Under the pieces are notes generated by a model. That model saw nothing but the letters and a program-made list of their open reading frames with translations, was not told where the DNA came from and did not search any database. A stretch of DNA of 64,000 bases. It comes from an uncultured Trueperaceae bacterium. GTDB taxonomy: Bacteria > Deinococcota > Deinococci > Deinococcales > Trueperaceae. The stretch lies in assembly GCA_963799485.1 (NCBI GenBank), contig CAWCXJ010000012.1:1-64000 (forward strand). The letters are read 5' to 3'. The translations under genes and the position numbers were made by a program. Shown one piece after another: positions 4,037 to 18,664 of the stretch (position 1 is its first letter; every line of letters begins with the position of its first letter).

Positions 4037-6365
4037 TTACTGCGCGGTTCCTAGCTGCCGCGCTTGCTTTTTGTCATCTTTAACCAAGCGGATGATCTCG
4101 CGCCCGTTCAGGGTCGCTTTAAGCGTAATCGGGCGGTTGTTTATCTCAGCCAAGCCCCGGTTTATCCGCTCGAGTTCAGCCGCTAAAGGTTCCCATTCGG
4201 CACGAGTAACAGCGGTACCGCCCGGTGAAGCTTCGCTACGCACGTTTTCTATGCGCGGGGCTAAAAAGCTTCGTAGTCGTTCCCGTGTCTCTTTATCGCT
4301 GCCCGACACCCGTAACCCTTCTTGCGGTTCACCTGCTATTACTGGCGGCAAAACGAAGTTCGGGTTGGTATCCGGGGTGAACTGGTTCCACTTTGCCAGC
4401 ACGCCGTCCAAGCGTGGTTTGTGCTTGTCCCAGAACGCAAATATGCCTTTCCACGCCTTAACGAAACCGTCATTGATGCTGCTCCACAGGTTCTTTGTCC
4501 ACGTCTTAAAGCCGAACAGGTCGCGTTTCCACGCCACCACGCCGCCGACGATCAACGCGCCGATACCGACGATAGCAGCACCTACGGGGTTACTTGCAAA
4601 GGCTGCGAGTAAGGCGCGGCCTACCGTGACCAGGGCGGGCACCACGACCCGGATAAGCGTCCTTTGGGCAAACCGTAAAGCCGTAAGCGAGAACCTACCA
4701 AGTATGTTTCCGACCCTTCCCAACACCGGGCGTAAGGTATTCCCTATCGTTGTGGCAAACTTTCCGACGCCGCCCGCTGCTCCCCTCGAGTTGGTCGTGA
4801 GGTTCCGGGCTTGACGGTTAAACATTCCAAAAGGATTAAAGAGTTTGCCGACCCACCCGAACAAGCTTTTGACCCGTTTCGTTAAGAGCGATAGCGCACC
4901 GGCTGTAACAAGGGCTGCTAAAGGGTTCCCTAGAGCCTTACCGAGTAGCCCGCTACCCGACCCCGCCGCGTCTTTCCAGTTCGCTAGAAAGCCTTTTTGC
5001 CACGGCATTATGGTTAAAGCCTGAACCAGATCGAGGGTAGCCTGTAGACCTCGTACCACGAGGTTCACAGAGTCGGCTAGGGTGTTCCACAGCGTAGCGG
5101 TAAACCACTTCGGTAAGGCTTTGGAGTTGGCTAGGTCGTCGAGTAATTTACTTACGCCGCCCCAGTCAACGCGGTACAAGAGCGCGTTCAAGGCTTGCCC
5201 GGAATTGGTTAGAAGACTATCCCAAAGGCGGCTCGAGATGGTCGTCAAATCTTGCAAAGTAGTCCTTAAACTTGTCCCGAATGTCGAGAAGTCTACAGTT
5301 TTCTTAAACCTGTTCCAACCGCCCGTTAAGGCCGACACAAGAGTATTCCAACGCCGTTTCATTTCGGTAAGGTAGCCGCTAAAAAGCGTCTTTGCCGTTC
5401 CCCAGTATTCGCCCCAACCGTGGGCAATCATAAACGTTTCTGTGCGGGTCGTGATGTTATTTAGTACGGCGTTCCAACGTGTAGACAAGTCGTTAAACGT
5501 CACCCCTTTAAGTTTGCCTGGTAACGCTACGATATACTCCCCGAGCCGCCCGAGCCGGTCACGTGTGGCTTCGGCTACCCCTGCCGGGTACAAGCCGGTC
5601 AAGTCTACTGAAAGTTTACTTAGAGCCGCACCCAAGCCCTGCTGTTTCGCCGTGCGGTACAGTCCGGCAAGATTGCCCTCGAGGTTACGGAGGTACGCCG
5701 CGAGTCTTGGCGCTCGCTGCTCTAAGGTGTCGGCAAAACCAAACCAGTTACCATCAAAGGCGCGTTTAACGAGATACCCGGCACCGGCTAAAGCTGCAAG
5801 GGTCGTGAACAAGGGTACGGTAGCAAGTAGTAACCCTTTTGCGCCGCCCGCTGTGAACCATAAGACTTTACCTAGTGCAGCGGTGCCGGTCGCCAGTGCT
5901 GCCAGGGTTGCGAGTACCGTACCGCCCGCCGCAATGCGGCCCAAAGTGGTACCAAAAGCTCGCCACGCCTGAACATTATCCTGTGTCGGCTGGTAAAGCC
6001 GCTCGAGCCATGCTTGAACCTTAGGAAACACATTTGCAGCATCTAAAAATGCCACGGTACTTTTCGCCGCGCCTTTTAGCAGATCGGCGTAGGAGGTTAG
6101 AGTTTTACGGTACGCCGTACCGAACGACCGCACCAAAGAACCCACGCGATAAAGCACCGCACCTAACGTGTACGTGAACTCGAGCAAGCCGGAATCTTTT
6201 AGCGCAGCGCGGGTGTCAACGCTTAACGAGGTGATACCCATAGACCAATCCAGATTCCTAAAGAGTTCACTCAGTCCTCTGTAGGTCAACGTCACACGGT
6301 CTAACCACTCGCTCGTTATGTCCCGAACGCCGAACAGGTTTTTCTTATACGCCGTCCCAAGTAAC
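4037..6365 (-). pseudogene. Phage tail tape-measure-like protein, 5'-truncated by IS3
   Basis: Ala/Gly/Leu/Trp-periodic helical protein with ASNPVGAAIVGIGALIVGG and a C-terminal LNGREI. The frame stays open upstream of 6295 (LLGTAYKKNLFGVRD) right up to the IS end at 6366. Confidence 0.7.
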
Positions 6366-6376
6366 TGAGGGGATCC

Positions 6377-7231
6377 CTAAGCTTGGGCCATTTCGGATGT
6401 GAGTCTAGGCAGGTGTAGCTTACCTGTTTCGAGGGCTTCTGCCAAGACAGCTTGGGGTGTCCGGTAGCCAAGTGCTCCGTGAGGTCGGTGTTCGTTATAG
6501 TCTTGCCGCCACTTTTCGCTTAGTACACGGGCTTCGGGGGTAGAGGTAAATACTTCCAGGTTCAAGAGTTCATCCCGGAAACGGCTGTTGAAGCTTTCAC
6601 AGTAACCGTACGGCAAAGCCTCGGCGCTGCGCTGAATTTGCCAGGGTGAGCCGGGGTCGATGTAAAGCGTTTTGATGGTAGCGTCGGTGACGAACTTTTG
6701 CAGTGTTTGGGCGATGAACTCGGGGCCGTTATCACAGCGGATGAAGCTGGGCGCTCCGTGCAGGGTGATAAGACGCTCGAGTTCGGTTACAACGTTATGG
6801 CTGGTCATATTGCGCTCGACCTTAATACTTAAACAGGAGCGAGAGAACTCGTCAATGACCGTTAAGAACTTGAGCCGTCCGCCACTTAAAGTCGTGTCCA
6901 TGATGAAGTCAAGCGCCCAAACATGATGGGCGTATTCTGGTTTACGCCGGTGGCAGGCGTTCTCGCCATTACCCAAACGGGTTCGTTTATGCGTCCGGCT
7001 TGGCACCTTTAGTCCTTCAGCCCGCCATAGCCGCTGAACTCTCTTACGGTTCACGTGCCAGTGTTCTTCGTTAAGCTTGGCGGTGATCCGCCGATAGCCG
7101 TAACGGGGATGTTCCAAAGCTAGTTCGTGCAAGCGTTTAACCAGCACTTTGTCCTTCTCTATCCGTAGGGGCTGATATCGCTGCGTACTCCTAACTTGCC
7201 CAAGTACTCGGCAGATCCGCCGTTCGCTCAC
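6377..7231 (-). CDS. IS3 OrfB integrase-core transposase with a 9-aa in-frame insertion
   Basis: YGYRRI, WALDF, IRCDNGPEF, ESFNSRFRDE, YNEHRPHGALGY. Confidence 0.9.
   Translation of the reverse strand: MSERRICRVLGQVRSTQRYQPLRIEKDKVLVKRLHELALEHPRYGYRRITAKLNEEHWHVNRKRVQRLWRAEGLKVPSRTHKRTRLGNGENACHRRKPEYAHHVWALDFIMDTTLSGGRLKFLTVIDEFSRSCLSIKVERNMTSHNVVTELERLITLHGAPSFIRCDNGPEFIAQTLQKFVTDATIKTLYIDPGSPWQIQRSAEALPYGYCESFNSRFRDELLNLEVFTSTPEARVLSEKWRQDYNEHRPHGALGYRTPQAVLAEALETGKLHLPRLTSEMAQA
6610..6636 (-). repeat. 27-nt small inserted element, copy 1
   Basis: TTCAGCGCAGCGCCGAGGCTTTGCCGT; removing it restores the conserved PWQNGY motif. Confidence 0.8.
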
Positions 7232-7281
7232 GCCCAGTTCGCGCCGGACATGAGTTACAGCGTCACGGCGCGTTCTGGGCG

Positions 7282-7563
7282 TTAGAACTTTGTTTTTAGT
7301 GCCTCCTTAAGAATATCGTTATCAAGGTCCTTCTCCGCCAGCAGTTTCTTCAGCCGGGCGTTTTCCTTCTCCAACTCTCTTAACTGCTTAGCATCGCTTT
7401 TCCCCATGCCACCGTACTTTTGCCGCCAGCGGTAAAAGCTCCACTCACTGATACCGAGGGTGCGACACGCCTCCGCCGCCGTCTTTCCCTGGTTAGTTGC
7501 CTTCTCGACGTTGCGGAGAATGTCGATGATCTGCTCGGGGGTATGAGTCTTTCGCATGGCCAT
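7282..7563 (-). CDS. IS3 OrfA (HTH transposase subunit)
   Basis: HTPEQII, FYRWRQKYGGM, LRELEKENARLKKLL. Confidence 0.9.
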   Translation of the reverse strand: MAMRKTHTPEQIIDILRNVEKATNQGKTAAEACRTLGISEWSFYRWRQKYGGMGKSDAKQLRELEKENARLKKLLAEKDLDNDILKEALKTKF

Positions 7564-7616
7564 TCCTCTCAGCCTGACTCACATTCCGCTTGGCTCAGGT
7601 TTCGGGGGTCACGTCA

Positions 7617-8477
7617 AAACAGGATGAGGTTGTGAGCCGCGACTTTGCGGCAGACACTGGCACGAATGCTCCAAAAAGAGTTGAGCTGTTGCAAGGCAAT
7701 ATTGCGACATCTTGCGAGTGAGGAGAAAACAGCCTCGACAGACTTTCTGGCACGAGCGAAGAAGTCACACCAGCAGCCGGGTTCTTTGGCGTTTTGCTTG
7801 GGTGGGGTGTAGATGCCTAAACCCCGATAGCCTTTGTCGCCGATGCTGCTGTTTAGGTCATCGCCAGAAGCGTCCAAGAGACACTTGCCCACGGTGACAT
7901 CACTTTCATTGGCTGGCACGATGGCAAAACGACAGCTAGCACCCTGACCCGTGCAAACGGCGTGAAGTTTAAAGCCGTAGAAGCGTTTGGTTGCCCCACC
8001 GCGTCCAGAGGTAGCTTCGGTCATCCTTCTTGGTCTTGGGTAGCGAACACCCTTGCAGATAGGCAGCGGCTTGGAGTCGACCAGCTACACCCCATCATGC
8101 TGAGCAATCAGCATAGCTAAGTCCGCATAGATGCGTTCGAAGTTACGGCTCACTCGGTAAAAACGTGTGATATGAGGCAGGTCGGGGAACAAAGCGCCGT
8201 ATTCACGCTGCACCAGCAAGTACCACAAGCCTTGATTTTTCTGCTGAAGTATCTCGCCGACCAGAACAATGGTGAGCAACTCGGCGTAGCTGGATTTTTG
8301 TTGGCGCTTTTTAGGCAACTTGAAGCGTCCTAAGCGTTCTGAGGCTTGTAGATAGTCGTCTATCAGGACATATACGATTGTGAAAAGGTCTGTTACATTA
8401 TGCTTTGAGAGAAGATCAACGGCTCGCATGACCTATCTTCTCTCATCTTTTACCCCTTTTCTACTAGCACTCGAGGT
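7617..8477 (-). pseudogene. IS982 family transposase with an internal stop, 3' end cut by IS3
   Basis: ORFs 8085-8429 and 7614-8024 join across a TAG (GV*LVDSKPLPIC); FYGFKLHAV, IGDKGY, RKSVEAVFS. Confidence 0.8.
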
Positions 8478-17180: not shown

Positions 17181-17249
17181 CTCACCTCCGTTGCATGTAC
17201 CTCAGCTTACTTCTGACATGAACTAACCGGATGAATCATTAAGGCGCGT

Positions 17250-17790
17250 CAGCTCGTTTTTGTGATGCGGATGCGCCACGATACCCTGATTGGCTCGAAG
17301 GGTTGCACCCGCTCAGCGCAGCAGCGTTATGGCTACCCGGCCAACCAAGAGGTTTATGTTTGCTCTAAACGCTGCCGGGTTTTTGGGTTACGCTTAGGTG
17401 TCGCCGTGACCCAGAGTAAAAAAGGCGAACTCGTGGTACTCGTGTGTAACGCCGATCCCGACCAAGCGCTTCGACGTTACCCGGCTCGCCGGCAAATCGA
17501 ATTCAGCGAAGCGCCGAGGCGAAGCCGTCCGCTTTTGTCCGCCTTGAAGTCACGGGGCTTTAACCTCGAAGACACCCACATGACCACGTCCTAACAGCTG
17601 GATAAACTTTTGGCTCTGTTGGCGATCGTGTTTGCCTGGGCACATCTTGTCGGTGAGCGGTGCTACCACGACCGGTCGTTAAAGCTTAAAGATGGTTACC
17701 TGCCCCAAAGCTGTTTCAAACGCGGCCTCGACGCGCTTCGCTCAGCCATCCTCGCAGGTCATGCGCCCGCCCCCATCAGCCTTGACCATT
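17250..17790 (+). pseudogene. IS4-like transposase 3' remnant; its tail resumes at 18666-18697 after the IS5 insertion
   Basis: RRQIE..ALKSRGFNLEDTH, SCFKRGLDALRSAIL; final CLKLLSP* and TGTCCCCGTAG lie after the IS5 element. Confidence 0.7.
17502..17528 (+). repeat. 27-nt small inserted element, copy 2
   Basis: TTCAGCGAAGCGCCGAGGCGAAGCCGT, 23/27 identical to copy 1; removal restores RQIE-xL-xSALKSRG spacing. Confidence 0.8.
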
Positions 17791-18664
17791 AGACCTCCTG
17801 CGAAAGTCAGGTTTGGAGCTGAGCGTTGATGAGCCCGGCGATGAGGCGAAAACGTAAGGAGAAGCGCTTGCGGCGGTTGCGGTAGGGGTCTTTGAGGATG
17901 TGCCAGATTTTCAGTGAGCGGATAGTGTGTTCGACGGTGACGCGGAAGCGGGCGAGCGAGCGGTTGTGGGCTTTGTCTTCAGGTTTAGGTTCAGCTCCGC
18001 GCGGTTTGCGGATAGGTAGACAGCGCTGCCGATGGTCTTTGGCATAACCTTGATAACCGCCGTCGGCGACGACCCAGACGTGGGCTTGCAGCTTGGGGTC
18101 AGCCGTTCTCAGGAGGGTGAGGTCGTTCGTTGACCCCGGGGCGTGGGCGGTGGCGAGAAGCTTGTGGCTTCTCGCGTCGAGGACGACCTGACTTTTCAAG
18201 GTATGGCACTTTTTCTTGCCGCTGTAGTAGCGCCGCTGGTTTTTTTGGGGCGTTCGGTGCGCGTCTCGGTGGCGTCGACCAAGACCACCACCCAGTCATG
18301 CTCGGCGACTTCACGGCGTTGGGGCAAGCTGAACTGACCCGAGCTGACCAGCGCGTCTTCAGTCTGCCTGATGATGCGACAGGCGGTTGCTTCATGTACC
18401 CCGTAACTCGCCGCAATATGAAACTGCGTCCGGTACTCTCGCCAATACATCAGCGTCAACAACACCTTGTCTTCAAGAGAAAGCTTGCCCGGGCGGCCTG
18501 ACTTCTTGTGCCTCTGCGCTTCTCGAAGCACCCCGATCATCTCCCCGAACACCACCGGTTTGACACCCGTCAGCCGTTTGAACGCTTTTGGACTTAAGTC
18601 TTTCACTGCTTCGTAACGCATCTGACCACCTTGCAACAGCTCGCCTTACTTCTGCAAGAGGTCT
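17791..18664 (-). mobile_element. IS5 family (ISL2/IS702-like) element with two ORFs joined at an A7 slippery run
   Basis: IRs AGACCTCCTGCGAAAGT and AGACCTCTTGCAGAAGT. ORFs 18196-18636 (FKRLTGV, LMYWREY) and 17807-18199 (ADGGYQG, VEHTIR, YRNRRKRF); the shifted frame gives YYSGKKKCHT. Confidence 0.9.

Follow-up and report, generated by a model that had tools for sequence, protein, structure and literature searches.

A 27-nt unit within transposase genes of Trueperaceae: a probable micro-insertion element

The locus described here raises the question of how a conserved transposase motif came to be split by exactly 27 nt in a gene that is read through the insert. The window, a stretch of 64,000 nt from an uncultured Trueperaceae bacterium, contains at 6366..7616 on the minus strand a 1251-bp IS3-family element with TG...CA ends (IS3-A), composed of orfA (7282-7563, minus strand) and orfB (6377-7231, minus strand), the latter an IS3-family OrfB with rve, rve_3 and HTH_21 domains. 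As the initial annotation had stated, the motif PWQNGY is interrupted in orfB at 6610..6636 (minus strand) by the 27-nt sequence TTCAGCGCAGCGCCGAGGCTTTGCCGT, without target duplication. The junction reads ccc tgg caa a/27 nt/ac ggt tac, between the PWQ and (N)GY codons, and the insert is translated in frame, N being replaced by I-QRSAEALP-Y. This copy 1 consists of a variable base, T, and a 26-nt core with the loop bases C and TTT. A second copy, identical at 23/27 positions, was likewise found in an unrelated transposase at 17502..17528 of the plus strand (TTCAGCGAAGCGCCGAGGCGAAGCCGT; T plus core, loop bases A and GAA, both hairpins GCGAAGC). Its host, at 17235..17792 (plus strand), is the C-terminal remnant of an IS4-family (ISLpn9-like) transposase, the frame of which is broken by a stop at 17592-17594; the insert is translated in frame as FSEAPRRSR and adjoins the E of the Y-x2-R-x3-E-x6-K motif. 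This host has an identical copy at C13:445741, and at C8:270821 there is a diverged 3' fragment with the same element inside. A degenerate pattern of the unit gave 2 matches in the window, compared to 0 in 100 dinucleotide-preserving shuffles; no Rfam match was obtained for positions 6300-7700 up to E = 1.

The nine extra residues are not a normal feature of this group of IS3 transposases: none of 119 public homologs, down to 52% identity, carries them, and the unit is also absent from the IS3 relatives of the same genus. Similarly, 0/119 homologs of the occupied IS21 contain it (82 fit the motif pattern, all reading PDN[LI]K, the remainder being unmatched by the pattern); in the IS21 of the source genome, the D of PDNLK is replaced by G, nine residues and S. 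Among the ISLpn9-like IS4 homologs the unit was seen in 1/120 (P0333), the other 119 being without an insert, 97 as judged by the motif pattern and most of the other 22 by visual inspection. Empty sites were also found closer at hand. Two empty IS1 paralogs in the source genome read IERFNN/TVRQR, and an alignment of occupied and empty alleles, as proposed earlier, was provided by a complete related genome (G025), in which both states of an IS256 coexist at 99.9% identity, with 1 substitution elsewhere in about 1190 aligned bases. The junctions of this pair read GATCAGC/ACC/CCCAG when empty and GATCAGC/G+core/CCG/CCCAG when occupied. Target duplication was not observed at any site with a known empty state.

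The source genome, which is 99.99% complete, contains 15 copies at 9 kinds of site, all 15 in insertion sequences (three kinds of IS3, as well as IS4, IS701, IS1 and IS21); a whole-genome pattern search allowing up to 3 mismatches yielded 13 matches, compared to 0 in the reversed control. IS3-A itself is present in six copies, 99.8-100% identical and with six different flanks, all six of them occupied, and no IS3-A copy lacking the unit was found in this genome; the occupied sequence also appears unchanged in contigs of independent runs. G025 carries 7 intact copies and 1 decayed copy, all in one IS256. About 10 copies were found in a genome of a third genus (G023). There, and in matching metagenome contigs, the unit is intergenic, tandem or nested in palindromes, and 0 copies lie in a transposase; at such loci it is located within a mosaic repeat of 70-90 nt and in the middle of a palindrome of 9 bp, with tandem arrays of TTGAATAC and of CTATCAG type alongside. 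In a collection of 185,579 species genomes, exact copies turned up in Trueperaceae alone, the exact pattern having been found in two genomes of this family and in one likely chance match. With up to 3 mismatches, 3/36 family genomes matched, compared to 0/24 from other families of the order; of these matches, the one in G003, with 3 mismatches, is probably due to chance. The earlier proposal of a mobile micro-element specific to this lineage is thus supported by further copies in unrelated contexts, in the source genome and in two other genera of Trueperaceae, and by the empty allele; both outcomes that the initial annotation had named as refuting it are contradicted.

Over all sources, 26 putative independent sites remained once 5 clusters had been removed. 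Left out of the site statistics were a match in a Gammaproteobacteria MAG (4-base loop, in a long unrelated ORF) and matches in two high-GC metagenome contigs (L076 and L088), all treated as chance, together with three contexts running into another whole or partial unit. Weaker look-alikes in ordinary open frames of the source genome (C6:473649, C4:115740 and C14:21993/C15:8267) were set aside as chance; C9:105126/122213, which has only the 3' half in common with the unit, was also set aside.

In the unit, a variable base (A, G or T) precedes the 26-nt core TCAGCG-N-AGCGCCGAGGC-NNN-GCCGT; in a second version the core has 25 nt, with a 2-base second loop, for a unit of 26 nt. The variable base is T at 5/7 site kinds of the source genome and rarely so elsewhere. 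Its ends, TCAGCG... and ...GCCGT, do not form inverted repeats. Both GC-NNN-GC segments match or resemble the GCGNAGC DNA mini-hairpin: all four N were observed in the first loop, and the second segment also fits this motif in its GAA, GTA, GGA and GCA variants, while TTT, TCT, TT and others fall outside it. The four differences between copies 1 and 2 are all located in the N of GCG-N-AGC or in the three middle bases of GGC-NNN-GCC, in agreement with the loop-only variation first claimed. For the other copies this claim can be judged only by the mismatch-tolerant searches, because the stem bases were fixed in the pattern of the later collection scans, which are therefore uninformative on this point. 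Very stable mini-hairpins had also been claimed. The two hairpins are the predicted minimum-energy fold (nearest-neighbour DNA folding), but their computed energy does not exceed that of shuffles (z = +0.1 to +0.65, and -0.46 for one bottom strand), and the notion of an unusual computed stability was dropped. The hairpin argument consequently rests on the published stability of the GCGNAGC hairpin, described in the accessible portion of PMC13037366 as unusually stable for any N, with a Tm of 70-76 C.

Through the 27-nt copies five of the six reading frames are open, and the unit was found in both orientations and in three reading frames. The in-frame state emphasised in the initial annotation holds for the 27-nt copies as a result of their length and is not a rule, since 26-nt variants out of frame exist. 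Tandem and half copies were also observed, and one copy has decayed through a 13-nt internal deletion.

The unit inserts immediately 5' of an AC dinucleotide, often ACAAY, and the native dinucleotide is AC wherever relatives reveal the ancestral state. Of the 26 sites, 25 have A or C at position +1, 23 have C at +2 and 24 have a purine at +3. The dinucleotide 3' of the unit is AC or CC at 23/26 sites, compared to a background frequency of 0.13 (binomial p 1e-17, a value that counts +1/+2 as target, a status only partly established). The 5' boundary is sharp and without 5' microhomology, and each in-frame insertion adds precisely 27 nt. Often, one to three target bases on the 3' side of the unit have been altered (A to C), a change for which we know of no counterpart in HUH transposition. 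Read on the bottom strand, the unit is flanked by GT or GG at 23/26 sites, often TTGT, a short motif of which the last base is often altered.

In an AlphaFold model of the IS3 transposase the insert is placed in a loop with a pLDDT below 50 (residues 192-211), which joins the last core strand to the helix starting just past the conserved glutamate E212. As IS3-A kept multiplying with the unit in place, the unit does not disable it; the transposase tolerates a 9-residue insert beside its active-site glutamate, and insertion sequences can serve as vehicles for passengers of this type. In the annotation of Trueperaceae transposases, 27-nt in-frame 'indels' without an obvious explanation are to be expected.

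The explanation that we prefer, with a probability of about 60%, is that the unit is a lineage-specific (Trueperaceae) non-autonomous micro-insertion element, moved in trans by a putative activity. At 27 nt, it ranks among the smallest mobile DNA elements known. The comparisons show that the whole unit enters pre-existing sequences without target duplication. With its length of 27 nt and five open frames out of six, it is translated as a 9-residue loop, so that a carrier insertion sequence can multiply on and spread it passively, as the six IS3-A copies demonstrate. The putative enzyme acting in trans may recognise a folded single strand. Its activity may belong, or have belonged, to lineages like G023, with their intergenic copies, and most or all present copies in the source genome and in G025 would be passengers of insertion sequences. 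A point against this explanation is that the target rule (AC plus purine) is short and does not account for the location of 15/15 copies of the source genome in insertion sequences.

Co-occurrence with HUH/RAYT or reverse-transcriptase genes, put forward in the initial annotation, was tested and does not discriminate. The Y1 HUH transposase (PF01797) was matched in 23/61 family genomes, including all three element-bearing genomes (G025 with fragments only) but also 20/58 others; G001, G003 and G004 were left out of this draw, G061-G087 were not scanned for the element, and G061 (PF01797-positive, unpublished) counts in the 61-genome tally only. The ends of a resident 570-bp IS200-like element (CCACCGCCTTTAGGCGGT and CCGACTTTAGTCGG-type hairpins) carry hairpins that are longer than those of the unit and different from them, no unit was found beside any of the IS200-like Y1 genes of the source genome, and the HUH link is unsupported. 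The same holds for a reverse-transcriptase link, since RVT_1 matched once in G023 but neither in the source genome nor in G025. Contigs of two other samples (X2 and X5), which miss rare variants, gave no sign of ongoing movement; they span the IS3-A unit unchanged and contain no joint that skips it. An intein, an intron, a translational-bypass element, a CRISPR repeat, attC and dif were all excluded by form, because of the unit's size, its occurrence in three frames and both orientations, and the lack of matching take-off/landing codons.

One possible alternative, which we nevertheless judge unlikely, requires no dedicated enzyme: gene conversion between diverged copies of insertion sequences, together with rare microhomology-mediated template switching, would have carried the unit along with a few flanking bases. 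Consistent with such a scenario, the unit is identical and identically placed in diverged paralogs. Outside the unit, IS3-A and IS3-B have 76% identity over 454 nt, but 63/64 bases agree at and around it; downstream, IS4a and IS4b have about 78-80% identity, but the unit is identical in both, together with 11 bases on its upstream side and 8 on its downstream side; and three IS3 copies of one metagenome have a common unit and diverged flanks. Compared with the empty allele, the bases 3' of the unit are changed (ACC to CCG in G025; a T codon to CCG/CCC), the result expected from carry-over of a donor flank, and the 3' flanks are alike at unrelated sites (ACAAY, CCAA, CCG). However, the IS3-A/IS3-B pair requires no conversion, since a common origin of the two is not rejected (p-AU 0.55; 65 rows and a quick tree, with homologs P0002-P0074 of 240 aa or more), and with the same test in mind we do not claim an independent gain in each. 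Moreover, template switching usually yields variable lengths, whereas the gain here is always 27 nt in frame behind a sharp 5' boundary, and one short unit recurs at about 26 unrelated sites.

An additional scenario, to which we give rather less weight, is that the element or its mover aims at transposase genes, as a parasite of insertion sequences or as a means of host disabling or attenuation, by way of transposition intermediates or of the catalytic-core sequence. The distribution of the copies argues for it: every one of the 15 in the source genome belongs to an insertion sequence, with at least five families represented, and the 7 intact copies and 1 decayed copy of G025 lie in one IS256. 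Repeated DNA of at least 300 bp makes up 5.9% of the source genome, so that seven or more independent hits in insertion sequences would be very unlikely at random. Several sites are at or within 5 residues of catalytic residues, namely the D of PDNLK in IS21, the position adjoining the E of the YREK motif in IS4, four residues past IER in IS1 and, in two IS3 subgroups, 1-2 residues beyond the end of the rve model; the preference for T as first base at 5/7 site kinds hints at insertion within the lineage. On the other hand, this nearness to catalytic residues was noticed after the fact, and the conserved DN and YN codons (GAC AAC, TAC AAC) simply hold the preferred ACAAY target. None of the copies in G023 and the matching metagenome contigs is in a transposase, and IS3-A multiplied while carrying the unit. 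Insertion sequences are also the likeliest carriers of a passenger between genomes, from which the same picture would result. More doubtful again is the bolder reading, in which some system would write a fixed 27-nt cassette specifically into catalytic cores in many unrelated DDE transposase families through their transposition intermediates, as a hyperparasite or for host attenuation, with the intergenic copies as a side activity.

There is little chance, in our opinion, that the unit is a functional module kept by its carriers, such as a priming or protein-binding hairpin in copy-out transposition or a translation brake. Such a role would agree with its better conservation than the coding flanks in paralog pairs, with the amplification of two carrier elements (6 copies of IS3-A, 7 of the G025 IS256) and with the occurrence, in the accessible portion of PMC13037366, of GCGNAGC-type hairpins at single-strand priming sites of phages and plasmids. 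It is difficult to reconcile with the use of either orientation and three reading frames, with the destruction of the catalytic aspartate in IS21 and the shifted frame of the 26-nt variants, and with the presence of the unit in dead remnants and intergenic palindromes. That the unit is an ancestral transposase feature, a chance resemblance or an assembly artefact, for which nothing speaks other than the unrejected monophyly of the two element-bearing IS3 lineages, is ruled out for practical purposes by the homolog counts (0/119, 0/119 and 1/120), the empty allele at 99.9% identity, the 0 matches in shuffles and reversed controls and the recovery of the same occupied IS3-A in contigs of independent runs.

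The putative micro-insertion element was also compared with known systems. The IS200/IS605 family, its protein-less derivatives (PATEs) and ISDra2 of Deinococcus are single-strand peel-and-paste elements. Like them, the unit shows no target duplication, has single-strand hairpins as a likely recognition feature and occurs in genomes with Y1 transposases; the short motif that it adjoins on one strand (GT/GG on the bottom strand, often TTGT) may correspond to their fixed target of 4-5 nt; its tandem copies would be explained by a target that stays usable, as in IS200/IS605. Its hairpins, however, are much smaller than those of the resident IS200-like elements and do not resemble them, its target motif is degenerate, and the base adjoining it is often changed, unlike in peel-and-paste transposition. 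Also unlike the IS200/IS605 setting, G025 has no intact Y1 gene, and the ends of the unit do not resemble those of a resident autonomous element, as the ends of PATEs do. The terminal inverted repeats and target-site duplication of MITEs are both absent.

The likeness to cyanobacterial small dispersed repeats drawn in the initial annotation proved apt. SDR4-6 of Nostocaceae cyanobacteria, which were reportedly described by Elhai et al. in Genome Research in 2008 (18:1484), and the present unit have in common a length of 21-27 nt, dispersal, presence or absence at otherwise identical sites, small predicted hairpins, nesting in repeats, short tandem arrays nearby, in-frame location within genes and the lack of an encoded protein. 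They differ in target, which is the HIP1 palindrome for the SDRs and the 5' side of AC for the unit, and in the confinement of the unit to transposase genes of insertion sequences in two near-complete genomes. Because the host belongs to Trueperaceae (Deinococcota) and not to Nostocaceae, the unit would, by its described features, be at most an analogue of the SDRs and not a member by descent. Within HIP1-rich cyanobacteria, SDR-like repeats were not found outside Nostocaceae, according to the accessible portion of PMC5861425. In the literature searched, no description of such a unit was found for Deinococcota; reports of mobile DNA as short as about 25 bases are scarce, and were found in print only for Nostoc-type cyanobacteria, without a mechanism. 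The unit provides a clean case in another phylum, and its defined boundaries and target (5' of AC) could make a mechanism testable; the remodelled junction bases, the pair of occupied and empty alleles and the natural tandem, half and decayed copies are also useful in this respect.

Rickettsia palindromic elements, of about 100-150 bp, are found in frame in many housekeeping genes, where they add surface residues. The unit is likewise in frame in coding genes and read through, but is 27 nt long and, in the source genome, found only in transposases. These Rickettsia elements are mentioned among in-frame repeats in the accessible portion of PMC3733652. The literature on the GCGNAGC mini-hairpin, as far as represented by that of PMC13037366, treats it as a structural motif at phage and plasmid priming sites and not as a mobile element.

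REP/REPIN sequences with their RAYT (HUH Y1) transposases, including the GTAG- and CGTC-tagged REP superfamilies (accessible portions of PMC3116915 and PMC3733652), are also short, structured, non-autonomous and able to sit in frame within genes, and some REPs, in the same portions, insert into loops of other palindromes, as the unit nests in palindromes. As there described, a REP consists of one imperfect palindrome with stems of 8-9 bp or longer, whereas the unit has two stems of 2-3 bp and no long palindrome; REPs are mostly extragenic, in hundreds of copies and often in inverted dimers, whereas 15 copies and no such dimers were found here. A RAYT gene flanked by the repeats is a REP trait, and none of the Y1 genes of the source genome is flanked by the unit. 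The CGTC-tagged repeats are likewise without an associated transposase (accessible portion of PMC3733652); the CC form of the unit ends in ...CCGTCC and thus contains CGTC, which is present in this junction form only.

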